Counted from the first letter of the stretch, positions 7,004 to 33,564 are shown. The stretch: 62,072 bases of DNA from an uncultured Bifidobacteriaceae bacterium (GCA_964475285.1 CAYYWB010000002.1:1-62072); one strand, 5' to 3'. Numbers and translations are program-made. The notes: generated from the letters alone by a model not told the origin.

Positions 7004-7015
7004 TTGATAATTTAC

Positions 7016-7089: not shown

Positions 7090-7090
7090 A

Positions 7091-7447: not shown

Positions 7448-7680
7448 CCGGCAAAGGATGTTCCGGCGCCGGATGCCGGGCAAGAAGATAATGCCGCAAC
7501 CGTCTCCAAGCTTGACCTCGTTCCGGGCCGCTTCATAATTCCGCCGATGAATTTTGATGATGATCATCGCTTCCGCCCTGGCGCTGCGGCCGGATTCAAA
7601 TTCCAGCCGGTTTTTTCGCCGGCAGCGCGGTGTTTTGCGGTTGTCATCAATCATAACCCCGCCACCGAACCGAACCCGTA

Positions 7681-7956
7681 ATGACTCCCGAAACGGATCC
7701 CAAGATAATCGCCGCGAAACTCTGCGAGTTTGCGCGGACCAACTTCGTCGCCGAGGGAATGGAATTTGACGAGAACAGCCCGTTGTCACAGGCTGGCATA
7801 GATTCTTTCGCGCTGGTGGAACTGGTGCTCTTTTGCGAGCGCGTGCTGGGCGTCCGGGTGCCGGACTCGCACTTGACCGGCGCCAACCTGGCCTCGATGT
7901 CTTCGCTGGCCAACTGCATCGCCGGGCTGGCGCGCAACAGCCAGCCTTCGTCTTGA
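7681..7956 (+). CDS. acyl/peptidyl carrier protein
   Basis: 91 aa with LSQAGIDSFALVELV, a phosphopantetheine attachment-type DS(F/L) motif. Confidence 0.8.
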   Translation: MTPETDPKIIAAKLCEFARTNFVAEGMEFDENSPLSQAGIDSFALVELVLFCERVLGVRVPDSHLTGANLASMSSLANCIAGLARNSQPSS

Positions 7957-7974
7957 AAATTTCCGGCAGCGACT

Positions 7975-11992: not shown

Positions 11993-12050
11993 TCAACATT
12001 CCGCAAAGCCGAACCTTGCCTCGCGCAAATCGGGAATTTAATCTTCGCGC

Positions 12051-13484
12051 ATGAACGTTTTCGACACGCTCGCCAAATCCGCCCGCCAATGGCCCGACCG
12101 CACCGCCATTATTGATGCCGGTGGCGCACTGGACTATCAATCGCTTTGGCGCGAAGTCGAGGCACTCCGCTTGCAGTTCCACCGGCTCGGCGTCAAGCCG
12201 GGACAAGGTGTCGGCATGCGAGCGCGAAACGGACGCGCGTTCGTCATCGGCGCGCTGGCGGCGCTCGGCTGCGGCGCGGTGATCATGCCGATTCATCACC
12301 AGATGAAGCCGGATGAACTGGCCGAAATGCTGGACAAAGCGCCGTTGTGCGCGATTCTCGACGACGGCAGCGGCGCGGCCCAGCCCGGCAAAACCATTGC
12401 CCTGGAAAATCCGGGCGGAAACGGTCTGCGTTTCACGCGACTGGACAATGCGCAATTGCCGCTCGCGCCGGGAATCAAAGACGCCGCGTTCGTGCGCTTT
12501 ACTTCCGGCACGACCGGCGCGGCCAAAGGCGTCCTCCTCACCCATCGCGACGTGTTGGAGCGGACGCGCGCCGCCAATGCCGGCCTGGGCCTGACCTGCG
12601 AGGACAAAATTTTGTGGGTGCTGCCGATGGCGTATCATTTTTACGTGTCCATCATCCTTTACCTGGAGGCGGGCGCAACCGTCATTGTCAGCGCCGATTA
12701 TCTGGCCGGCAGCCTTTTGGAAACCGCCGCGAAGCACGCGGCCACGTTTTTTTACATCACACCGATGCACGTACGCATGATGAACAGCGACCAGTCGGGA
12801 CGCGCATTGCCGCCGTCGCTCAAGCGCGTTATGTCCGTATCCGCCAAGCTGCATCCGCAGTCCGCGCTGGATTTTCTCGCGAAATACAAAGTGCCGGTGT
12901 CGCAGGGCTACGGCATCATCGAAGTCGGTTTGCCGATTCAAAATATCGCCGAAGCGGCTGAACATCCCGAAGCGATTGGCCGTCCCGTAGCCGGCTTTGA
13001 GGCGAAGATTGTGGACGACAAAATGCAGCCCGTCGCGGAAGGTGAAACCGGCCAGCTCGCCTTGCGCGGGCCGGGAATGTTTTCCGGCTACCTGAATCCG
13101 CCGCGCTCGCGCGCCGAAGTGCTGCACGACGGCTGGTTTCTGACCGGCGACCTCGCGCACCGCGACAGCGGCGGCCGCATCGTGCTGGACGGGCGGACTT
13201 CCTCCGTGATTCACGTCGCCGGCCACAAGGTTTTTCCGGAGGAAGTCGCCGCAGTGCTGGACCATCATCCGGCGGTGCTGCGTTCGCGCGTTTCCGCCCG
13301 CTTGCATCCGCAAATGGGCGAAGCCATCCACGCCGAAGTGCAATTGCGCCCCGGCCAGCTGGCCGCGAGCGAAGACATCATCGCCTTTTGCCGCAAACGG
13401 CTGTCGTCACAGAAAGTTCCGGCCACGCTGGAAATCGTCGCGGAAATAAAAACAACCACCAGCGGCAAAGTCCGCCACGGGTGA
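12051..13484 (+). CDS. AMP-dependent synthetase/ligase (adenylate-forming enzyme)
   Basis: FTSGTTGAAKGV (core A3), QGYGIIE, GWFLTGDLA and GRTSSVIHVAGHKV motifs. Confidence 0.85.
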   Translation: MNVFDTLAKSARQWPDRTAIIDAGGALDYQSLWREVEALRLQFHRLGVKPGQGVGMRARNGRAFVIGALAALGCGAVIMPIHHQMKPDELAEMLDKAPLCAILDDGSGAAQPGKTIALENPGGNGLRFTRLDNAQLPLAPGIKDAAFVRFTSGTTGAAKGVLLTHRDVLERTRAANAGLGLTCEDKILWVLPMAYHFYVSIILYLEAGATVIVSADYLAGSLLETAAKHAATFFYITPMHVRMMNSDQSGRALPPSLKRVMSVSAKLHPQSALDFLAKYKVPVSQGYGIIEVGLPIQNIAEAAEHPEAIGRPVAGFEAKIVDDKMQPVAEGETGQLALRGPGMFSGYLNPPRSRAEVLHDGWFLTGDLAHRDSGGRIVLDGRTSSVIHVAGHKVFPEEVAAVLDHHPAVLRSRVSARLHPQMGEAIHAEVQLRPGQLAASEDIIAFCRKRLSSQKVPATLEIVAEIKTTTSGKVRHG

Positions 13485-13490
13485 AAATTT

Positions 13491-13505
13491 TTGGTCAAAT
13501 CAAAA
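13491..13505 (+). repeat. left copy of the direct repeat flanking the R-M cassette
   Basis: TTGGTCAAATCAAAA here versus TTGGTCAAATAAAAC at 15480-15494. The first 10 nt are identical; 13/15 overall. Confidence 0.7.
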
Positions 13506-13520
13506 AATGGAGAAATTAAA

Positions 13521-14156
13521 ATGGTTGAAGTTCAAGCGCACGGCTTCAGTTTTGAGAAATGGGTTCGGGATCATTTCTTTTCAGGTTATCGGGGCACCTA
13601 TATGCAAAAGTGGGATGTCCCGCCTGAACGCAATGTTGACGCTTCAGTTCCCGAGAAATTTCACAAGCTGCCAGTCTCTATCAAGACGGCCAAACTCGGG
13701 AGCCCGATTGGTTTGGGTGACGTTCTCCGGCAGCGCCAGATAGATCATGATTTCTTAATGATCGTCAGATTTTGGGAGCAGCGCACTGCCACTGAAAAGT
13801 GGATTGTGGACATTGGGTGCGCCGCATTTAATTCGGCAGCATGGCAGAAACTTTGGGGCCAGCTAACGTTGGAGGAAATTTCCAGCATTGATAAAGTGGT
13901 GAAAAATCTGAATGAACATTATTCGATCGTCAGAGGCAAAGCACAGCAGTGGAAAACAAAACCGGGAGTCCAGACCAGCACACTTGTCATAAATCCAAAA
14001 ATTGATTCCAAGTCGCAGCGGCGCATTCAGTGTTCCCTGCCATATTCGACCTTCTGGAATTTTACCGGTCGGAATCCGACTCCGCAGGATTGCCCTGAGT
14101 TATGGACGCATGTTTTTCCCAATCCGATCAAATCGCCGGCGCGCACTTTCCATTAA
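13521..14156 (+). CDS. candidate type II restriction endonuclease (partner of the adjacent methyltransferase)
   Basis: AT-richer ORF (21/60 G+C in 13861-13920), convergent with and 28 bp from the MTase. Possible PD-(D/E)xK-like pattern E...D...SIK. No recognisable family otherwise. Confidence 0.45.
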   Translation: MVEVQAHGFSFEKWVRDHFFSGYRGTYMQKWDVPPERNVDASVPEKFHKLPVSIKTAKLGSPIGLGDVLRQRQIDHDFLMIVRFWEQRTATEKWIVDIGCAAFNSAAWQKLWGQLTLEEISSIDKVVKNLNEHYSIVRGKAQQWKTKPGVQTSTLVINPKIDSKSQRRIQCSLPYSTFWNFTGRNPTPQDCPELWTHVFPNPIKSPARTFH

Positions 14157-14184
14157 CCCCGCTGAAATTGCGGGCGAACTTCAT

Positions 14185-15453
14185 TCATCGAGGCGGGCGC
14201 TGAAGTGCCAGCTTTTTTGATTTGAGCAGACTGGAAGGAATTCTCAATTCAGCCAAGGATGATTTGGAAACGCTTAAAGCTCCCACGCCTTTGGCCAGCC
14301 GGCGAACTGCTGACCGGCCAGCTTCACTGTTGAACCATTCAACCAAGCCGGGATTGTCAATCTTGGCCAAGGGTGTCAGCACATGAATCCAGTCGTCGGC
14401 TTGAGCGGTCAAACCCGGCGGCACCAGCGCGGTTCGCCCGTAACAACCCGCACCGACTCGCACAAATAAAATCTCACCCGACCGAACCGCAGACTGTTCG
14501 CAAAACATTTCGCCTTCATTTGAAATATAGGCGCAATTGCGATCCAGCCGCAGTCCGCCTCCCGGCGCGAGATTTTTTGCGCGAATCAACAACACCCGCT
14601 CATCGCTGGGCTGTTCAAAAAATTCCCGCTTCTTCCCATACAAGGCATAGCCGGTTCTCAACCTGAAAATGTCTCCCAACCGGACGGTCTTAACATCCGT
14701 TGTTTGCAGTTCACCGCTTTGTGCTTCAGGCCGCCAATCTGCCACCTCGGTCAGCACCACTTTTTTCCAGCGCGGCTCCATCTTCTCCCATTCGCCAAGA
14801 CGCAGCGGTCTCAATTCGGTCAACCGCTTGCACTCCAGCAAGAGCGTGGCCTCGCGATAGGGATGGGGTGCAACCGGACGCTTTTGTGCGACAAGGATAT
14901 TTGTTTTCGCGGTTGTGCCATTAAAAATTCCCCGAGGCAGGCTGATGATGGCTTCCACCTGCGCCCGGCATAACAACCAGTCGCGCACATATTTGAAGGG
15001 TCGGTTGCCAAGTGGCCCGTCCGGCAGAATGATGGCAATGCGGCCATTTGTCTTGATGAGTTTCAGAAACAGCTCCAAAAACAAAACTTCAAGGCATTGC
15101 GATGCCCTGCCCGCGCCCAGATCAAAACCTTGCAACACTTCTGAACGTCTTTCGAGGCTGGTCTGTGCGCTGAAAGGCGGATTCCCAATTGCCAAATCAA
15201 ATGTTCCCCAGTATCCAACCAGACTGGTTAGTGCATCGCCTTGGGAAAAATGTATTGCTGGCACCAGGCATTTCGCGATGGCCGCATATTGTGGATCAAT
15301 TTCGCAGCCATGCAACTCAAGCGCGGTCGGAGCGATTCGCAAGAATGAACCATCACCGCAGCTAGGATCAATCACTCGCTGGCCGCTGTGAACACCGGCT
15401 ACTCGAAACATACAACCCGCGACCATTTCTGGCGTGAAGAATTGGCCAATCAT
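14185..15453 (-). CDS. N6-adenine DNA methyltransferase, gamma class (M.TaqI/Eco57I-like) with a C-terminal target-recognition domain
   Basis: FFTPEMVA, DPSCGDGSFL (motif I) and AIGNPPF (motif IV, NPPF). 422 aa, like M.TaqI-type enzymes. Confidence 0.85.
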   Translation of the reverse strand: MIGQFFTPEMVAGCMFRVAGVHSGQRVIDPSCGDGSFLRIAPTALELHGCEIDPQYAAIAKCLVPAIHFSQGDALTSLVGYWGTFDLAIGNPPFSAQTSLERRSEVLQGFDLGAGRASQCLEVLFLELFLKLIKTNGRIAIILPDGPLGNRPFKYVRDWLLCRAQVEAIISLPRGIFNGTTAKTNILVAQKRPVAPHPYREATLLLECKRLTELRPLRLGEWEKMEPRWKKVVLTEVADWRPEAQSGELQTTDVKTVRLGDIFRLRTGYALYGKKREFFEQPSDERVLLIRAKNLAPGGGLRLDRNCAYISNEGEMFCEQSAVRSGEILFVRVGAGCYGRTALVPPGLTAQADDWIHVLTPLAKIDNPGLVEWFNSEAGRSAVRRLAKGVGALSVSKSSLAELRIPSSLLKSKKLALQRPPR

Positions 15454-15479
15454 TTAGGAAATGTACCTGATTTTGTACC

Positions 15480-15494
15480 TTGGTCAAATAAAAC
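15480..15494 (+). repeat. right copy of the direct repeat flanking the R-M cassette
   Basis: TTGGTCAAATAAAAC; see the left copy at 13491-13505. Confidence 0.7.
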
Positions 15495-15561
15495 CACTTC
15501 TTTAAGATCGAAGAAGCTTTTGTCCCGGAGAACAAATTGCCCTGCGACGGGCAACTTTCTG

Positions 15562-16839
15562 CTAAACCGCCACGCTCTTTTTCGCTCGGTTTTCGAGAAA
15601 GTCGCGCCGCCACTTTGCGCGGGAAGGTTTGCCGGTTCCGTTGCTGCCGATGGATTCCACAAACCACCATTCGCGCGGCACCTGCCAGGCCGGCAGTTTC
15701 TGGAGCAGGAACTGTTTCAGCTCGTCCCTGGTGCTGGGCCGGTCCGCCGCGACGCACGCCACGATGAGGTCAATCCGGTCCGCGTTCCCGCTCGGCACGC
15801 CAAAGACGACGCATTCGGCGACGGCCTCGTGGTCGCGCAACGCCTGCTCGATGATGGTCGGCGACACTTTGCGCCCGGCCACGTTGATGTGGTCGTCGGT
15901 GCGGCCGCGCAGAAAAATTTCCCCGTCCTTGAGTTCGGCAAGATCGCAGGTGCGGAAAACTCCGCCGCCCAGCGCCGGCTCCGGCTCCGGCCAATAGGTT
16001 TCGCCCACCGCGCGGCCGCGCACCAGCAGCGCGCCGGTTTCGCCAATTTCCACCGACACGTTTTTCAGCGGACGGCCCACGGAGGATTCATTTTCGCGCG
16101 GCGTCAGGGTTGCGTCGTAGGCGATGCCGCCGCATTCGGTGGAACCGTAAAAATTGTGGATTTTCACGCCATGTTCCGCGAAGACGGCGCGCTCCAGCGA
16201 GAGCGGCAGCGGCGCGCCGGCGGAGATGGCCAGACGCACGTTGCTCAAAATCGCGCCGGCCTTGTGCCACGCGTGCCAGAGCGCCGGAACGCCCGCCACG
16301 GTAAGATTCCAGTCGGCGTGCGCCGCGCAACGCAACGCCTCCGGCAGCGGCGACGGCACGAGATACAGCGGAATGCCGTGCAACAGGAGCGGCAGCACGA
16401 GGCTGGAAAATCCGTAGGAATAAGCAGGTGAAATCACGCCGAGGTTCGGCCAGTCGGGACGCAGCCCCATCGTGGCCACGATGTTCTCCGCGTCGGCGGC
16501 CAATTGCTCCCCCGTGAACACGACGGCGCGCGGCACGCCCCGGCTGGCCGGCGTGATTTTGAGATGGCAGCAGGGCGGTCGCGGCGGAGAGACATCGAGA
16601 AGTTGATGATGCGCTTCGAGCGGACAGGCCACGATGCGTTCGCGCCACGCGCGCAAAACGGCGAAGATGAACCCGGGGGAATTGCCCTGGGGATAGGCAA
16701 TCACCGGAGTTTCCAGCAGGGGGTTTTCGGCTTCGTCGTTCAGTTGCGAAAATGTCCAGCATCGTCCGTCGCCCAAATCGCGCAGGGCAATTTCATTTCG
16801 TCTTTCCCGGACAACCTTCCGCCAGCGTTCGTAAAGCAT
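15562..16839 (-). CDS. AMP-dependent synthetase/ligase (short adenylating enzyme)
   Basis: FYGSTECGG, RTCDLAELKDGEIFLRGRTDDHINVAGRKV and the terminal GKPSRAKW are adenylate-forming superfamily motifs. Confidence 0.75.
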   Translation of the reverse strand: MLYERWRKVVRERRNEIALRDLGDGRCWTFSQLNDEAENPLLETPVIAYPQGNSPGFIFAVLRAWRERIVACPLEAHHQLLDVSPPRPPCCHLKITPASRGVPRAVVFTGEQLAADAENIVATMGLRPDWPNLGVISPAYSYGFSSLVLPLLLHGIPLYLVPSPLPEALRCAAHADWNLTVAGVPALWHAWHKAGAILSNVRLAISAGAPLPLSLERAVFAEHGVKIHNFYGSTECGGIAYDATLTPRENESSVGRPLKNVSVEIGETGALLVRGRAVGETYWPEPEPALGGGVFRTCDLAELKDGEIFLRGRTDDHINVAGRKVSPTIIEQALRDHEAVAECVVFGVPSGNADRIDLIVACVAADRPSTRDELKQFLLQKLPAWQVPREWWFVESIGSNGTGKPSRAKWRRDFLENRAKKSVAV

Positions 16840-16941
16840 CTGTTTTGCTTGTAATAAGCCAGCATTTGACGCAGTTGCAAGCCCGATTTCAATTTGAACC
16901 GCAAAATTTTGTTTTTGATGGCGCGGGGCATTTTCCCGGAA

Positions 16942-17997
16942 CTACCGCGTCCGCGCAAACATCAGCCGCCAAAGCCAGCCGGAGCACAGCAGGATCGCGC
17001 CCGGCCGGCCTGCAAGCGCGGGCGAAATCATCACCCATTGCAACAGCCGTGCCCAGGCCAGCCGCCGTGAAAAGGCCGCATCGCAACGCCGGGCGATTTG
17101 CCGCCGGGCTTGTGGCCAGTTCAATTTGCCTTCGCTGTAAGCGGCCAGCAGTTCGACGGCCATCTCCGCCGACTCGAAGGCCATGGACATACCGTTGCCG
17201 GTGACCGGCGGGGTCATCGTCAAGGCGTCGCCAATGCAACATTCTTTTTTTGCCGCCGCGCGCTGCGGTTTCAATTGCAACCCGGCCACGGAGCAAAACG
17301 AGTCCGATGCAAATTCCGCCGCGCCCAGCCGCTCGCGCAACAGCGAGCCGGTTTCGCCGCGCAGCCAGTCCTGCCTTGATTCCGGGCGGCGCGCTCCGTC
17401 GCGCGCGCGAAAAAGTCCGCACACATTCACTTCTCCGTCGTTGATACGATTGACGCCAATGTAACCGTCCGGAGAGAGGTGCATTTCCAAATCCGCTTCG
17501 AGATTCACGGAACTGGAGCGCGACACGTGCGCCTTCACGCCAAACCAGCGCGGATTTTTTTCCGCCGATTGAACGCGCCGCCCGGCGGCGTGAATCACTC
17601 CTTCCCGGTTTTCATCCGCGGTCCAGCGCGTGTTCACGAGCAATTCACCGCCGAGCTGTTGAAATGTTCCGGCCAGCAGCGCGTCCATCGCGTGGCGCGA
17701 CAGGCAAAGCGCAGGCGCGGCCAGTTGGCGGACGGGCGACCGGTTTGATCCACAAACGAACATGACCGTGCGGGCATGAACTGCACCGGCCTGCTCAAGG
17801 CGCGCAAGCAATCCGAGCCGTTCGAGGACAGCCTGCCCGTCTCCGCTGATGAATTCGCCGCAAACCCGGTGCCGCGGATAAATGCCCGCTTCAATAATTT
17901 TGACCGGCACATCGCGTTGTCGCAGGCCGATGCCCAGGGTCAATCCCGCCAGCCCGCCGCCAACAATTGTGATGGATTTGCCGGGCGGCATTTTCAA
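16942..17997 (-). CDS. FAD/NAD(P)-dependent oxidoreductase (geranylgeranyl-reductase/monooxygenase-like)
   Basis: SITIVGGGLAGLTLGIGL dinucleotide-binding motif. 4-nt overlap with the upstream methyltransferase gene. Confidence 0.7.
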   Translation of the reverse strand: MKMPPGKSITIVGGGLAGLTLGIGLRQRDVPVKIIEAGIYPRHRVCGEFISGDGQAVLERLGLLARLEQAGAVHARTVMFVCGSNRSPVRQLAAPALCLSRHAMDALLAGTFQQLGGELLVNTRWTADENREGVIHAAGRRVQSAEKNPRWFGVKAHVSRSSSVNLEADLEMHLSPDGYIGVNRINDGEVNVCGLFRARDGARRPESRQDWLRGETGSLLRERLGAAEFASDSFCSVAGLQLKPQRAAAKKECCIGDALTMTPPVTGNGMSMAFESAEMAVELLAAYSEGKLNWPQARRQIARRCDAAFSRRLAWARLLQWVMISPALAGRPGAILLCSGWLWRLMFARTR

Positions 17998-18689
17998 TCC
18001 ATCCGCCGCGCGATGAACAGGTGGCTGAACGGGTCAACGGGACGCTCGACCAGCTCCCAATTTTTTTTGTCCGGCCAGAGCGACGAAAGTTCGCTGCCGG
18101 CAAATCCGGCGCGGATGCTGATGGGACCATCGTGGCAGGTGACGGGACCGCAGCCGATCACCCACAGCAGGCGGCCGCAAAGCAGTGGCAGCCACGAGCG
18201 GCGCGGTTCGAGCGCGATGACCACGCGCGCGGATCGCGCCGCCAGCCGGAGCAGTTCGGCGAGCTGCTCCATTTGAAATTGGTGGAAAAACAAATTGCTG
18301 ACAATGGTTCCCGCCGGGTTTGGCGGCGACTGCCGCAGCCATTCGGAGGCTTCGGCGATTTCCGCGCGGACACGCCAGCCAAGGCGGTGGAATTGATCGC
18401 GCGTTTGTGGCTCAAGCGCGTCCAGCCGGTCCACGAGGGTCGCCTGCGCGCCCGGCCATTGTCCCTGCAAACGTCCGGCGACGCTCAACAGAAAATGTCC
18501 GTCACCCGCGCCCAGCTCGACAATCTGACGGGCGTCCTGATCCGGCAAATATGTTTGCAGCAGGCGGGTCATGATGCGCGGATGCCGCATCCAGGCATTG
18601 ATCCGGCGGAGGTCGCGGCGCGAGCGCAAGGCGGATTGATCCTGCGGCGGCAGGGTGTCGAGGAGTTCGGGAAGGACAATCCGTTTCAT
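17994..18689 (-). CDS. class I SAM-dependent methyltransferase
   Basis: VELGAGDGHF (motif I). Start taken at MKRIVLPELL, 13 nt after the type III PKS stop. Confidence 0.7.
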   Translation of the reverse strand: MKRIVLPELLDTLPPQDQSALRSRRDLRRINAWMRHPRIMTRLLQTYLPDQDARQIVELGAGDGHFLLSVAGRLQGQWPGAQATLVDRLDALEPQTRDQFHRLGWRVRAEIAEASEWLRQSPPNPAGTIVSNLFFHQFQMEQLAELLRLAARSARVVIALEPRRSWLPLLCGRLLWVIGCGPVTCHDGPISIRAGFAGSELSSLWPDKKNWELVERPVDPFSHLFIARRMD

Positions 18690-18702
18690 GGAGCGGGATA
18701 AA

Positions 18703-19758
18703 TTATTCCACGTCGAGCAGCGCGCCGTGGCAACTGAACCCGGCGCCGAATGCTGACATCCACCAGAGGCCGCCCGGCGCGCCGTCCGCCAGCGCCGCCT
18801 GCAGAACAAATAAAACCGAGGGGCTGCTCATGTTTCCGTATTCGCGCAACACGGCTTCGCTCCAGCGGACGTCGTGGCTGGACAATTGAAATTTTTCGCG
18901 CAGGGCCAGCAGCACGTCGCGCCCGCCAGGATGAAAAATCCAGCCGCTGATCTGCGGCCGCGCCACATTGCTTCGGGCGAGCATGTCGGCAAAAACCGTT
19001 CCGCAGTGTTGCGCGGCCAGCGCCGGCACTTCCGGCGTGAGAATGTTGCGGAGCATTCCGTTTTTCTGCTCGAACCGCAACTGGTCGCGGTCAGCCGGCT
19101 TCAGGAGCGAGCCGCCGCCCTTCCATTTGACGCGCCGCCCGCCATTCGCGGTGGCCGAAAGCACCGCCGCGCCCGCGCCGTCGCCGAACAGGCAGGCGCT
19201 GATCAAAACGCCCGCGTCGTCATCCAGATAAAACGCGGCGCTGCACACCTCGACGCAGATGGACAGGACGCGCCCGCAATTGCCAGAAGCCACCAGCGCC
19301 TGGGCCGTCTGCAAATTGGGAAGCGCCGCGCCGCAGCCCTGCCCCACCAAATCGAGCGCCAGCACGTCCGGCCGCAGTCCCAGCCGTTCGCCGGCATAAC
19401 TCGTCAGGCCGGGGCACAGGTAACCGGTGCAGGTGCTGATGAGGATGGCGTCAATTTCGCGCGGGCTGGTTTTGGAATCGGCAAGCGCGCGTTCCGCCGC
19501 CAGCGTGGCAAGCGCCGGCGCATTTTCAATGAACCGGGCATGAAGCGCATCTGGCGTGAGGTCGAAGGCGTGGTCCAGTTTGTCGAGCGCGAGGTGGCGC
19601 GTGGCGATGCCGTTTTCACCCGTCAGCACTTTTTTCAAAATGGTTTTCGAGCGGGCGTTCAACTCCCGGAACCGCGCGGAGGCTTTCAACGCCGTCCAAC
19701 ATTCCTGCTGGGTGTAACATTGCGGCGGCGTGGCCGTGCCGGTTCCGATGATGAACAT
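18703..19758 (-). CDS. type III polyketide synthase (chalcone/alkylresorcinol synthase family)
   Basis: 351 aa. Catalytic-triad contexts ISTCTGYLCPG (Cys), FHPGGRDVL (His) and YGNMSSPSV (Asn) match CHS-like enzymes. Confidence 0.8.
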   Translation of the reverse strand: MFIIGTGTATPPQCYTQQECWTALKASARFRELNARSKTILKKVLTGENGIATRHLALDKLDHAFDLTPDALHARFIENAPALATLAAERALADSKTSPREIDAILISTCTGYLCPGLTSYAGERLGLRPDVLALDLVGQGCGAALPNLQTAQALVASGNCGRVLSICVEVCSAAFYLDDDAGVLISACLFGDGAGAAVLSATANGGRRVKWKGGGSLLKPADRDQLRFEQKNGMLRNILTPEVPALAAQHCGTVFADMLARSNVARPQISGWIFHPGGRDVLLALREKFQLSSHDVRWSEAVLREYGNMSSPSVLFVLQAALADGAPGGLWWMSAFGAGFSCHGALLDVE

Positions 19759-19822
19759 TGGCGAAGTGTAACGCGGCGCGGGTGGACGCGCCAGAAAATG
19801 GGTGGATTTTCTGGAATCAATT

Positions 19823-21388
19823 TCATCGAACCGGCGTCAGCGGAGCAAGTTTGCGCGCGTCGAGATAGGCTGCGACGGCGGCCGCGCTGCCTTCCGGATT
19901 TGCCAGGGCGACGTGGCCGTCGGGGCGCAGGAGGTAAATGGCGTTGCGTTGCAGGCCGGCCCGGCTCATCCCGTGACGCCAGGGGAAAACGCGCAGCGGC
20001 AATTTCCTGTCGGCACACACCGCTTGGATTTCGGGCGAGGCGTCGCCATAAACGTGAATCTGCCAGTCCAGCGATGTCAGCGGCGTGAAATTATCCCCGA
20101 CCCCGTCCAGGGCTGGCTTCACCCACGGCAAACGGTCGCCGCCGTGAACCGCTCCGGCACGGCCTTCGCTCAAGCTGCTTTTGCGATAACTCACCGCCAC
20201 CTGCGAGATCACGCGGAACAGGAATTGCCGCACCGCCGCGATTTTCAAAACGCGCGGCAGAACGAACGGCACGAGATTCCTTCGGGCCCAGCGGTCAAAC
20301 GGTCTTTGACTCGTCACGCCGGTGAATACTTTGTCCGTGGTATCCACCAGTTTCCGCGCGAAGGCGATGCGTTCCGGTTCGTAACTGTCGAGGAGCGCGG
20401 CGTCCGCGCGCCCGCGCAGGACGGCGGCGAGTTTCCAGGCGAGGTTCACCGCATCGCCGACGCCGGTGTTCAGGCCCTGTCCGCCGACGGGCGTGTGGAT
20501 GTGTGCGGCGTCGCCCGCCAGAAAAATTCTTCCGCGACGGAATTGCGCGGCGACGCGGTGATGCACACGGTAGGTCGCAAACCAGTTCACGCGCTCGATG
20601 TTCATGCGCAGCATTTCGATGACGCCTTTGTTCACGTGCTTCCACTCCGCGACTCCGTTTTCGGCCTCGGCGCAGACGGTGCCAATGAGCCGCGCGCGGC
20701 CACCGGGCAGCGGAAAGACGGCCAGAAAATCCGTGGCGTCGAGCGCGACGAGCATTTCGCCATTCAGCGCCGGGCCGCTGGCGTTCACGTCGGCAACGTA
20801 AAAACGATGCGCGTAAGTGCCGCCGACGAAATCAATGTTCAGCAACTCCCGCACCAATGAACGGGCGCCGTCGCAACCAACAAGCCATGCGGCTTCGCAG
20901 GTTTCCGATGCGCCGCCAGGAAGTTTCAATTGCGCGGTGACGCGGCCGTTTTTTTCCTCAAAACCGGCAAGCTCTGTGCGGCGCTCCACATTCACGCCGA
21001 GGCCGGCGAGATGTTCCACCAGCAGTTGCTCGTGGACATCCTGGGAAATCACGAGCGCAAACGGAAACGGACAAATCTCACCGCCCATCTCCGTGAATGG
21101 AAGGCGCGCCATGTTGCGGCCGTCCACCCAAAGATTTGTGGCGGGCGCCTTGCGGCCGTGCGCGATGAGCGTGTCCGCGAAACCGATCTGGCGATAGAAT
21201 TCCAGCGTGCGCGCCTGCACGCCAATCGCGCGCGAGGTTGTTTCCGGCGCCGCCAGCCTGTCCACGATCCGGACGCGCACGCCCAGCCGTGCCAGCCACA
21301 CGGCCAGCACCAAGCCGCTCGGCCCCGCGCCAATGACGAGAACTTCAGCATCGCGAAATTTAGACGAGTTCATCGTTTCGCCCGCCAT
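19823..21388 (-). CDS. FAD-binding aromatic-ring monooxygenase (PheA/TfdB-type hydroxylase)
   Basis: VLVIGAGPSGLVLAVWLARLGVRVRIVD and GRIFLAGDAAHIHTPVGGQGLNTGVGDAVNLAWKL motifs. 521 aa with a C-terminal extension. Confidence 0.8.
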   Translation of the reverse strand: MAGETMNSSKFRDAEVLVIGAGPSGLVLAVWLARLGVRVRIVDRLAAPETTSRAIGVQARTLEFYRQIGFADTLIAHGRKAPATNLWVDGRNMARLPFTEMGGEICPFPFALVISQDVHEQLLVEHLAGLGVNVERRTELAGFEEKNGRVTAQLKLPGGASETCEAAWLVGCDGARSLVRELLNIDFVGGTYAHRFYVADVNASGPALNGEMLVALDATDFLAVFPLPGGRARLIGTVCAEAENGVAEWKHVNKGVIEMLRMNIERVNWFATYRVHHRVAAQFRRGRIFLAGDAAHIHTPVGGQGLNTGVGDAVNLAWKLAAVLRGRADAALLDSYEPERIAFARKLVDTTDKVFTGVTSQRPFDRWARRNLVPFVLPRVLKIAAVRQFLFRVISQVAVSYRKSSLSEGRAGAVHGGDRLPWVKPALDGVGDNFTPLTSLDWQIHVYGDASPEIQAVCADRKLPLRVFPWRHGMSRAGLQRNAIYLLRPDGHVALANPEGSAAAVAAYLDARKLAPLTPVR

Positions 21389-21405
21389 CCAAAAAGTTCC
21401 CCGCG

Positions 21406-22650
21406 TTAGCGGATCGCCAGCGTCGCCGGATTGGTGAGCCAGCCGGCGGGGCGCGACATGAATTCCAACATGCCGTGGCCGAAGCCCGATGTGATGGTCA
21501 CGCCGGAGGCCATGCGGCAGACTTTGTCGTTGAAGAACATATGCAGCGCGTCGGTGATTTTACCGGGGAATTTCCTCTTGAATTTCATCCCGCTTTGATA
21601 CATCGCAAAAATGCGACCGTCGTAAAAATACTGGATCAGCCCCATCCAGGCACGGAGAAGTTTGCGCATCTCGTGCGAGTAGGCTTCCAGGTTGTCCAGG
21701 TTTTCCGCAAGCATTTCCGCCGAGTGCAGCGCGAGATACACGCCCGGTGACAGCATGGGGTCCACAAAACCAAACGCGTCGCCGACCATCGCCCAGCCCG
21801 GTCCGTGGCCGCGCGAGGAGACCAGTTGGTAATTGGTGTAGGTGAAAACCCCGGTGAGGCGGCGACGGTTTGGGCCGGTGGCGGCGAGGACAGGATCGCG
21901 GGCGATGGCGGCTTCGAGCCGTTCTTCGGGCGTCTCCCCCAATTGCGCGGCGGCGTCCTTGTTGATCACCACGCCGACGGACATGCGGCTCGGCAACGGA
22001 ATGCGCCAGCTCCAGCCGTTGGCGAGTCGCCCGATCATGACCTGTCCGGGCGGCTGGTTGTCGGCGAAACCTTCAAAATGCGCGAAATGGGCCACGTCCT
22101 TGCGCGGGCCGACTTCCGCCGGAATTTCTAGGGCGTGCGCGAAGAAACGGCTGCGGCCCGTGGCATCCACCAGAAAATCCGGCTGCGCTCCTTTCAGCCA
22201 CGGCGCTTGTTCCAGCGTCTCCACCGCGAGCCGCACCCCGCCGCCGTCCGTGCGCTCGATTTTGGCGCGCGTCCGCGCGAAGCGCACGCCGAGTTCGTTG
22301 GCGCGGGCGTCGAACAGGCGGTCAAACTCCGGTCGCGGCGCATTGTAGGCGTAGGCTGGCATGCCCATGCTGGCGTTCGATTGAAAATCGAACTCCATTT
22401 TCTCATCCGCGTTCATGACGAACGTGACGCCGGGTTTCCTTTTGCAAATCGCAGCCGCCCGCTCCTCCAGGCCCAGTTTCCGCAACACGGGAACCACCGC
22501 CGGAATGAGCGACTCGCCGACGATCAACTCCGGCCGCCGCCCGTCGTCGAACACCGTCACGTCAATGCCCTTCATCGCCAGCAGCGACGCGAGCGTTGCG
22601 CCCGACGGTCCGCTGCCGATGATGCCAACTGTTTTGATGGTGGTATTAAT
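21406..22650 (-). CDS. flavin-dependent halogenase (tryptophan-halogenase-like family)
   Basis: GWSWRIPL (WxWxIP) and FVDPMLSPGV (FxxPxxSxG) signatures. The GIIGSGPSG FAD motif lies upstream of the first ATG, so a non-canonical start (ATT 22650 or ATC 22638) is implied. Confidence 0.7.
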   Translation of the reverse strand: MNTTIKTVGIIGSGPSGATLASLLAMKGIDVTVFDDGRRPELIVGESLIPAVVPVLRKLGLEERAAAICKRKPGVTFVMNADEKMEFDFQSNASMGMPAYAYNAPRPEFDRLFDARANELGVRFARTRAKIERTDGGGVRLAVETLEQAPWLKGAQPDFLVDATGRSRFFAHALEIPAEVGPRKDVAHFAHFEGFADNQPPGQVMIGRLANGWSWRIPLPSRMSVGVVINKDAAAQLGETPEERLEAAIARDPVLAATGPNRRRLTGVFTYTNYQLVSSRGHGPGWAMVGDAFGFVDPMLSPGVYLALHSAEMLAENLDNLEAYSHEMRKLLRAWMGLIQYFYDGRIFAMYQSGMKFKRKFPGKITDALHMFFNDKVCRMASGVTITSGFGHGMLEFMSRPAGWLTNPATLAIR

Positions 22651-22890
22651 AAATCGAAATTGGTTTTATGGCCTCGCCACGAACGCCGGATTGTTTGCCC
22701 GGCTTGCCCGTTTCGTCAACATAAAATCCTGCAATCTGGCGGATAAGCCGCGCTGGTTCAGTGGTCAAACACCGGCGCATTCACCGCTTGACTCAAAATC
22801 GCCGCAAAATAGAATTTGACCTGCTGGCAGGTTTAGTGGGAAATGGAGGCCAAAGACCGGTGAAATGAACAACAATTCCTGAACAACATT

Positions 22891-23898
22891 ATGAAAAAAT
22901 CCTGGTTCTGCATGCTGTTGACCGTGGCAACATTCGGCGCTATGTCCGTTTGCACGGCCGCGACAATTCTGTATCCCGTTGTCGTCAACGATCGCTGGGG
23001 ATTCATAAACAAATCCGGCGAGACCGTGATCAATCCGCAGTTTGACAAGGCCGATGTTTTTGCGGAAGGGCTTGCGCCGGTGAAAACGGGCAAGTGGGGC
23101 TATGTGGATTCTTCGGGGAAGATGGCAATCAATCCGCAGTTCGACAAGGCCGGTGGTTTCAGCGAAGGGCTGGCGGCGGTCAGGCTCGGCAGCGGCGGAC
23201 CCGCTCCCTTCGATCCCTTCGGTATTGCTGGCGGCGGCCGTTATGGCTACATCAATTCGGAAGGCAAATACGTCGTCAATCCGCAGTTCGACGACGCGGG
23301 AACTTTTTCCGACGGCCTGGCGCCAGTGAAAATGGGCAAATGGGGTTACATTGACAAATCCGGCAAGGTCCTCATCAATCCGCAATTCGACGAAGCGTAT
23401 TCGTTTTCCGACAATCTGGCGGTGATCAAATCCGGCGGCCATTTTGGCTACACCGACAAGGAAGGGAAGCTGGCCATCAATCCGCAGTTCGAACGGGCGC
23501 TGCCGTTTTCCGAAGGGCTTGCGGGAATCAGGACGGGCGGCAAATGGGGATTTGTTGACAAGACAGGCAAGGTCACCGTTAATCCGCAGTTCGACGAAGT
23601 GGGATCCTTTGTCAACGGGCAGGCGCCAGCCCGGCAGAAGCGCTGGGGTTACATTGACACCACCGGGAAATTTGTGATCAATCCGCAGTTTGACGAAGCC
23701 GCCGCGTTTTCAGAAGGACTGGCGGCGGTGCGCCAGTCGGGACACTGGGGATTCGTGAACCCAAGCGGCAAAATGGTGATCAACCCGCAGTTCGACGAAG
23801 CCGCGTCTTTTACCAACGCCTTGGCGCAGGTCAAGGTGGGCGGTCGAACCGGTTACATTGACGCCAGCGGAAAATATATTTGGAACCCCGCCAAGTGA
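22891..23898 (+). CDS. secreted WG-repeat (KWG-type beta-propeller-like) protein
   Basis: Signal peptide, then about 9 repeats of WGYIDxxGKxVINPQFDxAxxFSEGLAxV. Confidence 0.85.
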   Translation: MKKSWFCMLLTVATFGAMSVCTAATILYPVVVNDRWGFINKSGETVINPQFDKADVFAEGLAPVKTGKWGYVDSSGKMAINPQFDKAGGFSEGLAAVRLGSGGPAPFDPFGIAGGGRYGYINSEGKYVVNPQFDDAGTFSDGLAPVKMGKWGYIDKSGKVLINPQFDEAYSFSDNLAVIKSGGHFGYTDKEGKLAINPQFERALPFSEGLAGIRTGGKWGFVDKTGKVTVNPQFDEVGSFVNGQAPARQKRWGYIDTTGKFVINPQFDEAAAFSEGLAAVRQSGHWGFVNPSGKMVINPQFDEAASFTNALAQVKVGGRTGYIDASGKYIWNPAK

Positions 23899-23923
23899 GC
23901 GGGCGCGATATCCGCCACGTTTC

Positions 23924-24661
23924 CTAGCGGAGCATTTCCATGCGGGTTGCGGCAGGCAGGGATGACTGGACGGCTGAACTTGCCGGATGGAGCGACGCCG
24001 GCCGGCGGTCGAAATTCCGCCACCATCTCAACCAGCGCAACGAGTCGGCCACGGGATGAATGTGGCTGCCGCGACTCCCGCGAATGACACGGACCGGAAC
24101 GAACTCCACCCGCCGCCCCGCCAGCAGAAAGGCCATCAACATTTCGGATTCAACCTCGAAACGTTCCGTCTTGAGAGGCAGGGCCGCCCAGGTTCGCAGA
24201 TGAATGAGCCGGAACCCGGATTGGGTGTCGGGAAGCTGCCGCCCCGCGCGGCGCGAAAGTTTGCGGCTCATCCACCGGTTCACCTGCCGCCGCAGCCACG
24301 GCATGGCGCGCGCGTTATCCATGCGGTTGCCAATCACCAGCCGCGCACCGGTTTGTCCGGCGCACCGCAACAACGCCGGCAAATCCTCCGGCGCGTGCTG
24401 GCCGTCGCCGTCAAGCGTCACGGCCCATTCAAAGCCCTGCTCGAACAAGTGCGACAAGCCGGATCGGAGCGCCGCGCCTTTGCCGCGGTTTCGCTCATGG
24501 CGGATCACCGCCGCGCCGGCGCCTCTGGCCAGAAGCGCGGTCCCGTCCATCGAACCGTCATCCACGACCAGCACAAGGGAAACGTGCCGGCGCAGGGCCG
24601 AAACCAACGCGGCAATGCCGGCGCCTTCGTTGAGACAGGGAATGACCGCGGCGCATATCAT
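23924..24661 (-). CDS. family 2 glycosyltransferase
   Basis: AAVIPCLNEG, VVDDGSMDGT and TLDGDGQH (DxD) motifs. Start chosen at MICAAV. The upstream part of the 402-aa ORF is Arg/Ala-rich and looks non-coding. Confidence 0.8.
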   Translation of the reverse strand: MICAAVIPCLNEGAGIAALVSALRRHVSLVLVVDDGSMDGTALLARGAGAAVIRHERNRGKGAALRSGLSHLFEQGFEWAVTLDGDGQHAPEDLPALLRCAGQTGARLVIGNRMDNARAMPWLRRQVNRWMSRKLSRRAGRQLPDTQSGFRLIHLRTWAALPLKTERFEVESEMLMAFLLAGRRVEFVPVRVIRGSRGSHIHPVADSLRWLRWWRNFDRRPASLHPASSAVQSSLPAATRMEMLR

Positions 24662-24776
24662 GGGCGTTCTGTTTAGCTTCAATCGCGCCGGCAATCGAGA
24701 CAAAAAACCGGCGGCGGTTGCATTGTTTTCTTTCGCACGCATTTGATTGGGATATGATTGCCGCCGCCAAATTGTC

Positions 24777-26018
24777 ATGCTTTTTCCGACAACCTCATCG
24801 CCGCGAACGCCTGCCCGTGTCGTCGTCACCGGCGCTGGAATCATCACGGCCCTGGGCATCGGCTGGACACCAAACGCGGAAGGCTTCCGCGCCGGCCGCG
24901 CGGCGTTCCGCCCGGTGTCGCAATTTGATGTCAGCCGCCAGCGCGTAAAAACCGCGGCGGAAGTTGATTTGCCGTCAATTCTTCCGCCGACCCGGCTCGG
25001 CGCGCGTTCCATCGCCCGGCTTGACCGCGCCGGCGCGATGCTCGTGCTGGCCGCGCTCGAAGCGTGGCGGCAGGCCGGCTGGGAACCCGCTGAAAATCTG
25101 CCGCTTGTTTTGGGCACGACGGCAGGCGGCATGTTGCTCGGGGAAAGTTATTTTCGACAGGCGTTGCAACAACCGCTGCGACATTGCCAGCAGGCCACGC
25201 GGGCCGTTTATTATCAGCCGCAGGTCCAGGCGCGGATGGTTTGTGACGCGCTCGATTTCAGCGGGCCAATCACCATCATCTCGAACGCCTGCGCCTCCGG
25301 CGGCAATGCCATCGGCCATGCTTGGGATTTGATTCGTTTTGGCCAAGCCGAGCGCGTGGTCGCCGGCGGTTATGACGCGCTTGGCGAAATGGTTTTTTCT
25401 GGTTTTGATTCCTTGCAGGCGCTCTCGCCGACGGTCTGCCGTCCATTTGATGCGCGACGCGATGGTCTGGCGCTCGGTGAAGGCGCGGCGGTCGTCACGC
25501 TTGAAACCCTTGTGAGCGCGCGACGGCGCGGCGCTGAAATTCTGGGCGAAATCACCGGTTATGGCACGTCCATTGACCAGCACCATCTCACCCAGCCGCA
25601 TCCGCAGGGCGGCACCACGTTGATGGTCATGAAGCAGGCTTGCGCGAGCGCGGGCATCACGCCGGCCGAAATTGATTACATCAACGCCCACGGCACCGGC
25701 ACCGTGCTCAACGACGCTTCGGAAGCGTTCGCGATCAGCGAATGGGCGGGCCGCCGCGCCGCCACCCTGCCGGTCAGTTCCACGAAAGCCAGCGTCGGAC
25801 ATCTGCTCGGCGGCGCGGGCGCGGTCGAGGCGGTGGTTTGCCTCATGACTTTGCGCGAACAATGGCTGCCGCCGGAAATTGAATTTGAAACGCCCGATCC
25901 GGCCTGCAAATTTCCGATTGTCAACAAGCCGCAGGACGCGCGCGTGAACGCCGTGCTGTCCAACTCGTTTGGTTTTGGCGGCGTGAACGCGGCGTTGATT
26001 TTCAGGAGGTGGGCATGA
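24777..26018 (+). CDS. beta-ketoacyl-ACP synthase (KAS I/II-type, active Cys-His-His)
   Basis: ISNACASGGNAIG (Cys), INAHGTGT (His) and SVGHLLGGAG (His). Confidence 0.85.
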   Translation: MLFPTTSSPRTPARVVVTGAGIITALGIGWTPNAEGFRAGRAAFRPVSQFDVSRQRVKTAAEVDLPSILPPTRLGARSIARLDRAGAMLVLAALEAWRQAGWEPAENLPLVLGTTAGGMLLGESYFRQALQQPLRHCQQATRAVYYQPQVQARMVCDALDFSGPITIISNACASGGNAIGHAWDLIRFGQAERVVAGGYDALGEMVFSGFDSLQALSPTVCRPFDARRDGLALGEGAAVVTLETLVSARRRGAEILGEITGYGTSIDQHHLTQPHPQGGTTLMVMKQACASAGITPAEIDYINAHGTGTVLNDASEAFAISEWAGRRAATLPVSSTKASVGHLLGGAGAVEAVVCLMTLREQWLPPEIEFETPDPACKFPIVNKPQDARVNAVLSNSFGFGGVNAALIFRRWA

Positions 26019-27058
26019 GCCGGATTTTTGTCGCGGGAATTGGCGCGGTATCTCCCGCCGGCTGGAAAGTCGCGGCCTTGCGCGGCGCGCTGGACAAAGG
26101 CGAGCCGCTTCCGGTTCAAGCGCTGCCGCGGCCCGGCTGGGAAAAACCACTCCTGGCGCGGCTGGTGCCGAACCCGCCAGTGCGTCCGGAATTTTTGGCG
26201 CATCCACGGCTGCGACGAACCAGCCCAATCACGCACTACGCCGCATCAGCCGCGCTCGAAGCTGCGGCCGGCCTGCGCTCGAAGCCTGACGCGAATAATT
26301 TCCGGCTGGGCATCGTCGTCTGCCTGCAATCCGGCTGCGTGCAATACTCCTGCCGTTTTTACGACGAGACATTGAAGAATCCGGCCACGGCCAGTCCGTT
26401 GGTTTTCCCCGAAACGGTTTATGCCGCGCCAGCGAGCCATGTCGCCGCGCTGCTGGAAAATGTGGCGCTCGCTTATTCGCTAGTCGGCGATCCGTCCGCG
26501 TTTTTGCAAGGCGTCGCGCTCGGCGTCCAATGGCTGGAAGAAAATCGCGTGGATGCCTGTCTCGTCATCGGCGCGGAAGAAACCAACTGGATCACGGCGG
26601 ATGCGCTGTGGCATCTGGACCGGCGCGCCACCGTCACCGCCGGTGCCGGCGCTTTGTGCCTGTGCCGCGATCCAAAATTATCGGCCGGCATCGAACTGGC
26701 GGTCATCACCGACGCGCACACATTTTCCGCGCGGCAAAGTCGGACGCAAGCGGCGCAAGCCATGCGCCGCCAACTCGGCAAAAATTCCCCCGGTGAACTG
26801 CTTTGCGACGGCATCGGGGACAGCCCGCGAACCGGCGCGGCGGAACTTGCGGCGTGGCGCGATTGGGCCGGGCCGCGCGTCAGCCCGAAACGCATTTTGG
26901 GCGAAGGATTGATGGCCGCCGCCGCCTGGCAATGCGTGGCCGCGTGCGACGCGGTGGCCGGCGGAAAATTCGCCGCCGCCAATGCCAGCCTGGTTGGCTC
27001 CAATCAGCAGGCCATCGGCGCGCGATTCACGGCAGTGGCACAGGCATCTTGCCTGTGA
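26009..27058 (+). CDS. ketosynthase-like chain-length-factor type protein (no active-site Cys)
   Basis: KS-fold N-terminus IFVAGIGAVSPAG, but GDPSAF sits where ACASG would be. 10-nt overlap with the KS gene. Confidence 0.7.
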   Translation: MGMSRIFVAGIGAVSPAGWKVAALRGALDKGEPLPVQALPRPGWEKPLLARLVPNPPVRPEFLAHPRLRRTSPITHYAASAALEAAAGLRSKPDANNFRLGIVVCLQSGCVQYSCRFYDETLKNPATASPLVFPETVYAAPASHVAALLENVALAYSLVGDPSAFLQGVALGVQWLEENRVDACLVIGAEETNWITADALWHLDRRATVTAGAGALCLCRDPKLSAGIELAVITDAHTFSARQSRTQAAQAMRRQLGKNSPGELLCDGIGDSPRTGAAELAAWRDWAGPRVSPKRILGEGLMAAAAWQCVAACDAVAGGKFAAANASLVGSNQQAIGARFTAVAQASCL

Positions 27059-27107
27059 GTTTCTGTTGGAACAAACCCTGTGGGAATCACACAGGCAGGA
27101 TGCCTGC
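27039..27107 (+). repeat. two copies of a short hairpin motif (CACAGGCA-loop-TGCCTG) between the CLF and reductase genes
   Basis: cacaggcatcttgcctgtg (27039-27057, overlapping the CLF stop) and cacaggcaggatgcctgcg (27089-27107). Confidence 0.6.
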
Positions 27108-27154
27108 GCCACTATTTATTTGTCCGCCGCCGCAGTCAAGGGCAACATCCGGCC

Positions 27155-27886: not shown

Positions 27887-27898
27887 GAGGCAATTTTA

Positions 27899-29473: not shown

Positions 29474-29486
29474 AATGGGGTTGACT

Positions 29487-33557: not shown

Positions 33558-33564
33558 TACCGGT

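Follow-up and report, generated by a model that had tools for sequence, protein, structure and literature searches.

A type III polyketide synthase trio set between the halogenase and ligase of a predicted aryl-polyene/'ladderane'-type gene cluster in uncultured Limisphaerales

Positions 15562..22650 of the 62,072-nt stretch analysed here (GCA_964475285.1, CAYYWB010000002.1:1-62072, deposited as an uncultured Bifidobacteriaceae bacterium; hereafter the window) carry six intact, co-oriented genes on the minus strand, exactly where a sequence-only reading of the same DNA had placed them and taken them for a self-contained pathway to a halogenated, hydroxylated and methylated type III polyketide synthase (PKS) product. 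In the order of transcription they encode a flavin-dependent halogenase (Hal, 414 aa, 21406..22650, Pfam Trp_halogenase at 76 bits), a class A aromatic-ring hydroxylase (Hyd, 521 aa, 19823..21388, FAD_binding_3 at 275 bits), the type III PKS (351 aa, 18703..19758, Chal_sti_synt_N/C and FAE1_CUT1_RppA), an S-adenosylmethionine (SAM)-dependent methyltransferase in the position of HidA (MT, 231 aa, 17994..18689, weak Methyltransf_23/25 matches and a VELGAGDG motif), a second flavoprotein in the position of HidB (Flavo2, 349-351 aa, 16942..17991 or 17997, FAD_binding_3) and a short adenylate-forming enzyme (Lig425, 425 aa, 15562..16839, AMP-binding and AMP-binding_C). Pfam and NCBIfam agree with each of the six family assignments made in that reading, including the short adenylating enzyme, the N-terminal domain of which is partial. 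Calculated from the coordinates, the intergenic gaps are 17, 64, 13, -4 and 102 nt; the first had been given as 18 and is off by one, 64, 13 and 102 stand, and the fourth depends on the start codon of Flavo2. The overlap of -4 requires a TTG start, and the gap becomes +2 if Flavo2 begins at the ATG six bases downstream, which is used by all 349-aa orthologues.

Six intact genes that follow each other so closely on a single strand probably form one transcription unit. A sigma-70-like promoter match (TTGACG-18-AACAAT, 9/12 positions, minus strand, 22690..22719) lies about 40 nt upstream of the ATT codon at which Hal starts; it is a consensus match alone, with counts not above those in shuffled sequences, and a terminator scan likewise gave counts no higher than in shuffles. 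The identical six-gene order recurs on independent metagenome contigs, complete in two (L001 and L086) and truncated in three (L002, L087 and L095), and is therefore no assembly artefact.

Comparison with relatives shows that the six genes are a mosaic, in which a PKS-MT-Flavo2 trio sits between the halogenase and the ligase of a larger cluster. A Hal-centred scan of metagenomes gave 68 informative loci, a further 12 being too short. The gene after Hal is Lig425 in 29 of these loci, Hyd in 15, the PKS in nine, and another gene or none in 15; where Hyd follows Hal, the next gene is Lig in six loci and the PKS in three. In all, the trio occupies the Hal-Lig slot in 12 of the 68 loci. Contiguous Hal-Hyd-Lig genes with no PKS are found in L083, with a Hal that is 91% identical, and in L084 and L085 (81%), in clusters that are otherwise syntenic; where the flanks reach far enough, Hal lies in the large cluster. 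The slot is variable: it can be empty or hold Hyd, the trio or, as here, both. As core neighbours in clusters that have the PKS and in clusters that lack it, Hal and Lig425 most likely belong to the core enzymatic set of the large cluster, whereas Hyd, judging by its distribution, is an optional cassette of it.

The trio shows a different pattern. A PKS-centred scan, restricted to one genome per species, found relatives in 552 stretches, almost all of them in Limisphaerales/Pedosphaera metagenome-assembled genomes (MAGs) and all uncultured, and the best 80 loci were analysed. PKS, MT and Flavo2 form a conserved unit in these best 80 of 552 loci, and in at least 52 of the 80 (those with enough flank) neither Hal nor Lig425 is adjacent. 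In Limisphaerales the trio is normally a stand-alone operon. In a neighbour-joining tree the cluster-embedded PKSs form one clade nested among stand-alone PKSs, which suggests that the trio was captured once into the Hal-Lig slot. In the Hal tree the PKS-containing slots are scattered, and the simplest history would be one capture followed by repeated loss or cassette exchange.

Hal carries all signatures expected of a flavin-dependent halogenase. The WxWxIP and FxxPxxSxG motifs named in the sequence-only reading are both present (W213-x-W215-x-I217-P218 as WSWRIP; F295xxP298xxS301xG303 as FVDPMLSPG), together with a GxGxxG motif (GSGPSG). K72 aligns with K76 of CndH and K71 of CmlS, which we take to be the catalytic lysines, E46 sits within a GESL motif, and the signature motifs, K72 and E46 are invariant in an alignment with ten relatives. 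The best PDB matches are FasV (8zop, 142 bits) and CndH (94 bits), followed by CmlS, Bmp2 and PltA. Hal shares the fold and all signature motifs, including the aligned lysine, with these phenol- and pyrrole-type halogenases, but its short 414-aa chain lacks the long C-terminal extension of CmlS and CndH, and its clade differs from all five in starting at ATT. In NCBIfam, Hal scores 109 bits with the QhpG model, far under the cut-off of 240, and 98 bits with CmlS. A QhpG/LodB-type monooxygenase is ruled out by the motifs and by the PDB ranking, in which halogenases score 73-142 bits and the look-alike monooxygenase QhpG (7ctq) 28 bits.

The start of Hal at 22650 (codon 22648..22650, minus strand) is an ATT located exactly at the methionine of 414-aa orthologues that begin MRSSIQTVGIIGSGPSG, and no ATG, GTG or TTG occurs from the upstream stop to the GxGxxG motif. 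ATT stands at the orthologous methionine position in 31 sequences, namely the window and 30 related loci (among them L084-L086, L088-L093, L098, L099 and L104), and 21 of the 31 have no ATG, GTG or TTG at all between the upstream stop and the FAD-binding motif. Because it is shared at the methionine site and alternatives are missing in 21 sequences, ATT is a clade-conserved start codon of Hal, probably with a regulatory role. A shorter protein of 389 aa from the first ATG (22575) was rejected: it would lose the GxGxxG FAD-binding motif, and the orthologues begin 25 codons earlier. Gene callers nevertheless shorten the ATT-start Hal to these 389 aa and predict a spurious 84-aa ORF on the opposite strand (L001, 6940-7194). 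An orphan Hal homologue, 76% identical, is found outside lipid clusters beside an extracytoplasmic-function (ECF) sigma factor and TonB-dependent receptors (L171, 10001..11239).

The PKS is a chalcone-synthase-like enzyme with the full Cys-His-Asn contexts, as the sequence-only reading had it: C110 in STCTG, H276 in FHPGG and N309 in YGNMSS, invariant in nine relatives. Type III PKSs make up all of its 60 best PDB matches (PKS18 at 103 bits, Pks11 at 99.5 bits), with no FabH among them, and NCBIfam ranks DpgA highest, at 157 bits, well under that model's cut-off of 425, with FabH at 98 bits. Together these scores rule out a ketoacyl-ACP synthase III (KAS III, FabH; ACP, acyl carrier protein). 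With the lysine of Hal in place as well, neither of the two outcomes that the sequence-only reading had named as refuting it came about. Identity to PKSs of known product or solved structure is about 25-32%. Outside Verrucomicrobia, Caballeronia and Burkholderia plasmids carry the nearest relatives (55-57%), the next being at or below 32%. Clustering at 50% gives only 322 representatives at E<=1e-30, all with at most automatic names; the Joint Genome Institute label on relatives is 'alkylresorcinol/alkylpyrone synthase'.

Combinations of this kind are known from other organisms. SrsABC of Streptomyces griseus pairs a type III PKS with a methyltransferase and a flavoprotein hydroxylase acting on a resorcinol- or phloroglucinol-type ring, and differentiation-inducing factor 1 (DIF-1) of Dictyostelium is made by a Steely PKS, the flavin-dependent halogenase ChlA and DmtA, the genes of which are eukaryotic and not known to be clustered. 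In bacteria, trios of a PKS, a methyltransferase and a flavoprotein that yield methylated alkylresorcinols, to which the sequence-only reading had appealed, are documented for hierridin (hidABC) and for planctomycetal operons (PMC6836626, PMC8086630, PMC10896814): HidA methylates pentadecylresorcinol (PMC6836626), and the planctomycetal PKSs of MT-FAD-PKS operons produce C15/C17 alkylresorcinols (PMC10896814). Its view that halogenation is uncommon in bacterial alkylresorcinol pathways also agrees with the literature, in which the ring-chlorinated hierridin C is called the first bacterial halogenated monoalkylresorcinol and the responsible halogenase is given as unknown (PMC6836626).

The trio of the window shares with hidABC and the planctomycetal mtr-fdo-t3pks operons an adjacent type III PKS, small SAM methyltransferase and FAD oxidoreductase, with gaps of 13 and -4 (or +2) nt, and its order is that of hidC>hidA>hidB, one of the two arrangements described for hierridin-like clusters (PMC8086630). 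By analogy, the expected product class would be a methylated, ring-oxygenated long-chain alkylresorcinol, of which hierridin C is a ring-chlorinated example (PMC6836626). In sequence the trio is distant. Cyanobacterial and planctomycetal hid-type proteins are 48-55% identical to each other (PMC10896814), whereas identities to the MT-FAD-PKS operon on a Paludisphaera plasmid are 29.8% for the PKS, 23% for MT (1e-6) and 26% for the flavoprotein (2e-13). The closest non-verrucomicrobial relative of the PKS is on the Caballeronia plasmid pSBC2-3 (L168, 12001..16708), where the order is PKS-MT-FAD-ACP-KS (KS, ketosynthase) and PKS, MT and FAD oxidoreductase are 57%, 37% and 26% identical; this betaproteobacterial operon adjoins an integrase gene. 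Besides its Methyltransf_23/25 matches, MT has a weak match to PRK06202. Flavo2 shares PRxxVCGE and GDAxxxxxPxTGxG motifs with the FAD oxidoreductases of other PKS trios, and its AlphaFold2 (AF2) model (predicted local distance difference test, pLDDT, 76) resembles flavin monooxygenase and halogenase folds at a template-modelling score of about 0.7. The PRxxVCGE motif and 'menaquinone reductase' labels would fit a geranylgeranyl-reductase-type enzyme, but the fold search favours an aromatic monooxygenase or halogenase, and Flavo2 is presumed to be a ring hydroxylase. As it has neither WxWxIP nor the catalytic lysine, it was rejected as a second halogenase. Hence the trio is hierridin-like in architecture and, by analogy, probably in chemistry; by its identities it is a homologous architecture with distant sequence and not a close member of the Hid family. 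It differs from hierridin-type operons in its setting, a larger lipid cluster in which a halogenase and a ligase flank it.

The best PDB matches of Hyd are PgaE (174 bits), Rox and phenol hydroxylases. In some relatives (L177-L180, for example L177 5650..9646) the opposite strand carries Hyd immediately upstream of Hal, along with a catalase-family protein of 318 aa. Lig425 is short, the AMP-binding N-terminal domain being covered at profile positions 174-384 only. It keeps the ANL core motifs YGSTE, TCD, GRxDDxxxxxG and GK, and its P-loop is a family-specific variant, TTPA(T/S)TGVPR. Convergent with it lies a full-length acyl/aryl-AMP ligase (AMP477, 477 aa, 12051..13484, plus strand, AMP-binding at 210 bits, P-loop TSGTTGAAK), which is 76-92% conserved in relatives.

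The six-gene operon is the middle arm of a conserved locus of about 31 kb (about 1308..32156), the proteins of which were compared by BLASTP with those of the E. coli CFT073 ape cluster. The left arm, on the plus strand, starts with an MMPL/RND-type exporter fused to a lipid-A-type acyltransferase (1125 aa, 1308..4685, Pfam MMPL and Lip_A_acyltrans, ApeM at 1e-10), which is conserved in relatives; the acyltransferase domain is of the LpxL/PIM type, and the E. coli counterparts ApeM and ApeD are encoded by separate genes. It is followed by a LolA-like carrier (4649..5437; Pfam LolA, ApeL at 3e-4, best NCBIfam match LolA2_flexi at 61.6 bits, under threshold), a FabA/FabZ-type dehydratase (5434..5880; Pfam FabA, with an additional Pfam ApeI-like match in the L179 orthologue), a conserved 244-aa protein and an ACP (91 aa, 7681..7956, PP-binding, 83-93% conserved in relatives). 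Directly after this ACP lies a conserved 444-aa protein (7975..9309) that had no match in Pfam, NCBIfam or PDB searches. Its alignment shows an invariant WNHTxLDARG (HxxxD) motif with predicted strands before and a helix after it (AF2 single-sequence model unusable at pLDDT 38), and the protein is a candidate acyltransferase of the condensation-domain or wax-ester-synthase kind, one that might form an ester bond. The arm continues with a B12-binding radical SAM enzyme (9306..10718; TIGR04072 'ladderane-type lipid', 344.8 bits against a cut-off of 360), for which tblastn found no match in several orthologous clusters with enough flank (for example L005, L115 and L116), and with a FAD_oxidored (PF12831) flavoprotein (10667..11992, 275 bits), ahead of AMP477. 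The tRNA-Glu (UUC) at 430..504 (plus strand), at the left edge of the cluster, is the sole RNA gene found in the window; downstream of it follows a 265-aa ORF that matched no family. Between the convergent ligase genes sits a type II restriction-modification pair, a restriction endonuclease (13491..14156, plus strand, REase_II 8e-9) and an N6 adenine methyltransferase (14185..15453, minus strand, MTase_II 8e-52), in a region of lower G+C (0.55); among the related loci examined, it occurs only in this strain and in L001.

On the right, divergent from Hal and conserved beside it, lies a WG-repeat protein (22891..23898, plus strand, Pfam WG_beta_rep, eight repeats), followed by a GT2 glycosyltransferase with an ApeJ-like N-terminal domain (23924..24742, minus strand, Pfam Glycos_transf_2, ApeJ at 3e-25). 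The plus strand then carries a 413-aa KS (Pfam ketoacyl-synt N and C; ApeR at 4e-62, ApeO at 5e-54) and a degenerate 347-aa KS- or chain-length-factor (CLF)-like protein with a weak KS_N match (together 24777..27058), a FabG-type ketoreductase (KR; 27155..27886, adh_short/KR, ApeQ at 6e-40) and a CrtI-family, phytoene-desaturase-like amine oxidase (27899..29473; Pfam Amino_oxidase, crtI_fam at 115 bits, under threshold). A 599-aa protein stands between this oxidase and a second ACP (105 aa, 31839..32156, plus strand, PP-binding) that is 39% identical to E. coli ApeE (6e-13).

One locus therefore contains the gene set of aryl-polyene (APE) clusters such as E. coli apeA-R and those for xanthomonadin, arcuflavin and flexirubin: KS and CLF-like proteins, KR, dehydratase, two ACPs, adenylating enzyme, GT2, lipid acyltransferase, RND/MMPL exporter and LolA-like carrier (PMC8253772, PMC3949708). 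Glycosyltransferase, LolA, acyltransferase and exporter are the conserved hallmarks of xanthomonadin, flexirubin and arcuflavin clusters (PMC3949708), and all four are present. A second resemblance is to the 'ladderane-type' type II fatty-acid synthesis clusters of Kuenenia and Desulfotalea, with which the locus shares the TIGR04072 radical SAM enzyme, the phytoene-desaturase-like oxidase, divergent FabF paralogues and ACPs (PMC2649909). By gene content, the locus of about 31 kb is an APE/'ladderane'-type cluster for an envelope lipid or pigment, conserved in Limisphaerales (Verrucomicrobiota). Halogenases also occur beside APE genes elsewhere. In arcuflavin clusters ArcA carries a halogenase annotation, and bromine is found in xanthomonadins (PMC3949708). 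On a Ralstonia megaplasmid a bona fide APE cluster is followed, 2 kb downstream and in the same orientation, by a Hal homologue (31% identical), whereas plasmid hits for Lig425, the 444-aa protein and a Variovorax homologue of Hal yielded no informative annotated relatives.

The locus also departs from both models. Compared with APE clusters it has in addition the B12 radical SAM enzyme, the PF12831 flavoprotein, the CrtI-like oxidase, a second ligase, the WG-repeat protein and the 444-aa protein, and BLASTP of the cluster against the E. coli Ape proteins gave no homologues of the thioesterase, the methyltransferase ApeB or DUF3261. In arcuflavin and flexirubin the polyene is coupled to a resorcinol (PMC3949708), which here would be supplied by the type III PKS trio instead of DarA/DarB; general family scans, without a dedicated DarA/DarB search, put no DarA/DarB label on the proteins scanned in 514..34275. 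The host is also different, belonging to the Verrucomicrobiota. For Kuenenia and Desulfotalea no halogenase or type III PKS is described and the product is likewise unresolved; the radical SAM enzyme of the window falls slightly under the curated cut-off and, as noted, is unmatched in some orthologous clusters.

We see a roughly even chance that Hal and Lig425 serve the large cluster and that the trio supplies a methylated alkylresorcinol, co-expressed with the cluster and possibly joined to its product as in flexirubin and arcuflavin. The PKS would make a long-chain alkylresorcinol-type phenolic lipid, which MT would O-methylate and Flavo2 would ring-oxygenate. For the cluster itself, one of the two ligases would activate a starter acid, and a polyunsaturated acyl chain would be built on the cluster ACPs by the KS and CLF-like proteins, KR, dehydratase, CrtI-like oxidase and radical SAM enzyme. 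GT2 and the acyltransferase would link the product to an envelope anchor, and the MMPL exporter and LolA-like carrier would export it. Hal, and Hyd where present, would decorate the electron-rich aryl head group of this product, comparable to the brominated xanthomonadins. That this lineage has the trio within the Hal-to-Lig operon suggests a phenolic lipid that may be incorporated into the same product and act there as an ester partner, the part that the dialkylresorcinol plays in flexirubin or arcuflavin; if the two are joined, the resorcinol ring would be a second possible substrate of Hal.

Several observations weigh against this reading. Only the halogenase and the hydroxylase point to an 'aryl' starter, in a cluster family of no known chemistry, and no aromatic-acid supply gene of the XanB2, UbiC or TAL type was recognised in the cluster. 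At about 20% identity (E about 1e-3), neither Lig425 nor AMP477 can be called an ApeH orthologue with confidence, and among the PDB matches of both, enzymes that activate aryl acids occur alongside acyl-activating ones. Identity of the PKS to those of known product reaches only about 30%, so that its 'alkylresorcinol' assignment comes from architecture and automatic labels, and the trees are neighbour-joining trees without support values. A resorcinol is also a chemically plausible substrate of Hal, because FasV, its best solved relative, is presumably, by way of the fasamycin/formicamycin halogenases, a halogenase of phenolic aromatic polyketides. Finally, two gene arrangements fit direct partnerships with the PKS: GT2-Hal-PKS-MT-Flavo2, with Hal directly upstream of the PKS but no KS genes nearby and without the rest of the large cluster (L007 and L162), and PKS-MT-Flavo2-Lig, with Lig directly after the trio but no Hal (L003-L005).

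These two arrangements, the presumed preference of FasV and the tight spacing of six genes on one strand are what the self-contained pathway of the sequence-only reading has in its favour. There, Lig425 would activate a fatty-acyl starter for an alkylresorcinol or alkylquinone, MT, Flavo2, Hyd and Hal would tailor the ring, and the lipid genes would be separate. Precedents exist for both pairings, a fatty-acyl-AMP ligase with a type III PKS in Myxococcus (Ftp) and ChlA with the Steely PKS and DmtA for DIF-1, and hierridin C shows that chlorinated, hydroxylated, dimethoxy alkylphenols occur in bacteria (PMC6836626). The comparison with relatives does not bear out this pathway as stated, because Hal and Lig425 are adjacent without a PKS in 29/68 loci, with an APE-type cluster wherever the flanks suffice. 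Nor does the PKS need either enzyme, because most trios stand alone without Hal or Lig beside them. With Hal-Lig free of the PKS in 29/68 loci and the trio alone in at least 52/80, a starter supplied by the adenylase is possible but no longer the simplest explanation; the same holds for a halogenase that tailors the PKS product, with Hal copies of 80-91% identity in Hal-Hyd-Lig arrangements without a PKS, the 91% copy included. Overall, we regard the self-contained pathway as rather unlikely.

The order of events could also be reversed, with the KS, CLF-like protein, KR and dehydratase building an unusual (polyunsaturated, possibly methylated) acyl-ACP on which the PKS closes a resorcinol, to be tailored by Hal, Hyd, MT and Flavo2; in trio-less clusters a stand-alone trio would act in trans. 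Type III PKSs that accept acyl-ACP or acyl-carrier starters offer precedents, one being ArsB and ArsC, supplied by ArsA and ArsD. Another is CylI of cylindrocyclophane biosynthesis (PMC8086630). The nearest non-verrucomicrobial PKS relative (57%), in its PKS-MT-FAD-ACP-KS order on the Caballeronia plasmid, points the same way, and such a scheme would explain a core halogenase in a cluster without a recognisable aromatic-acid supply. However, in most genomes the trio stands alone and neither an ACP nor a KS gene accompanies it, and APE-type clusters elsewhere build ring first, with ApeH loading 4-hydroxybenzoate (PMC8253772); we think a ring closed last quite improbable. Still less probable, in our view, is that the trio is a passenger with no biochemical link, making its usual phenolic lipid from a permissive intergenic slot. 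The slot is evolutionarily labile, the restriction-modification pair has likewise been inserted between the convergent ligase genes of this strain, and the trio works alone in most genomes. Against a neutral passenger, the embedded trio has been kept while the accompanying Hal diverged to 67-93% identity, its orientation and position within the Hal-to-Lig unit are always the same, and its sequences are better conserved than would be expected.

Type III PKS trios and APE clusters are among the commonest biosynthetic loci of Gram-negative bacteria, and their products and roles are largely unknown outside a few models. This locus physically unites the two in a single operon that also includes a flavin-dependent halogenase. 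Every part belongs to a known kind, but we did not find the combination of three features described: a type III PKS trio flanked by the halogenase and the ligase in a cluster of the APE/'ladderane' type, a slot between Hal and Lig whose cassettes vary, and a host from a widespread uncultured verrucomicrobial lineage. Surveys merely list aryl-polyene, T3PKS and ladderane clusters for Verrucomicrobiota (PMC8692599, PMC9865893), and the literature searched held no pigment or lipid chemistry for this abundant lineage. For genome mining, the locus is a caution that tightly packed, co-oriented genes can mix a core pathway with captured cassettes; here, comparison with relatives altered which enzymes seem to belong together.

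For the lineage itself, a bolder but unlikely extension is that soil and peat Limisphaerales make halogenated, flexirubin-like envelope pigments, in which a methoxylated alkylresorcinol from a type III PKS replaces the dialkylresorcinol of DarAB. If so, the Hal family would be the kind of enzyme that ring-halogenates monoalkylresorcinols of the hierridin C type. The locus offers a concrete, candidate rather than established, gene set for how such ring-halogenated monoalkylresorcinols could arise, and it lets one ask whether flexirubin-like polyene-resorcinol hybrids occur beyond Bacteroidota and Proteobacteria.

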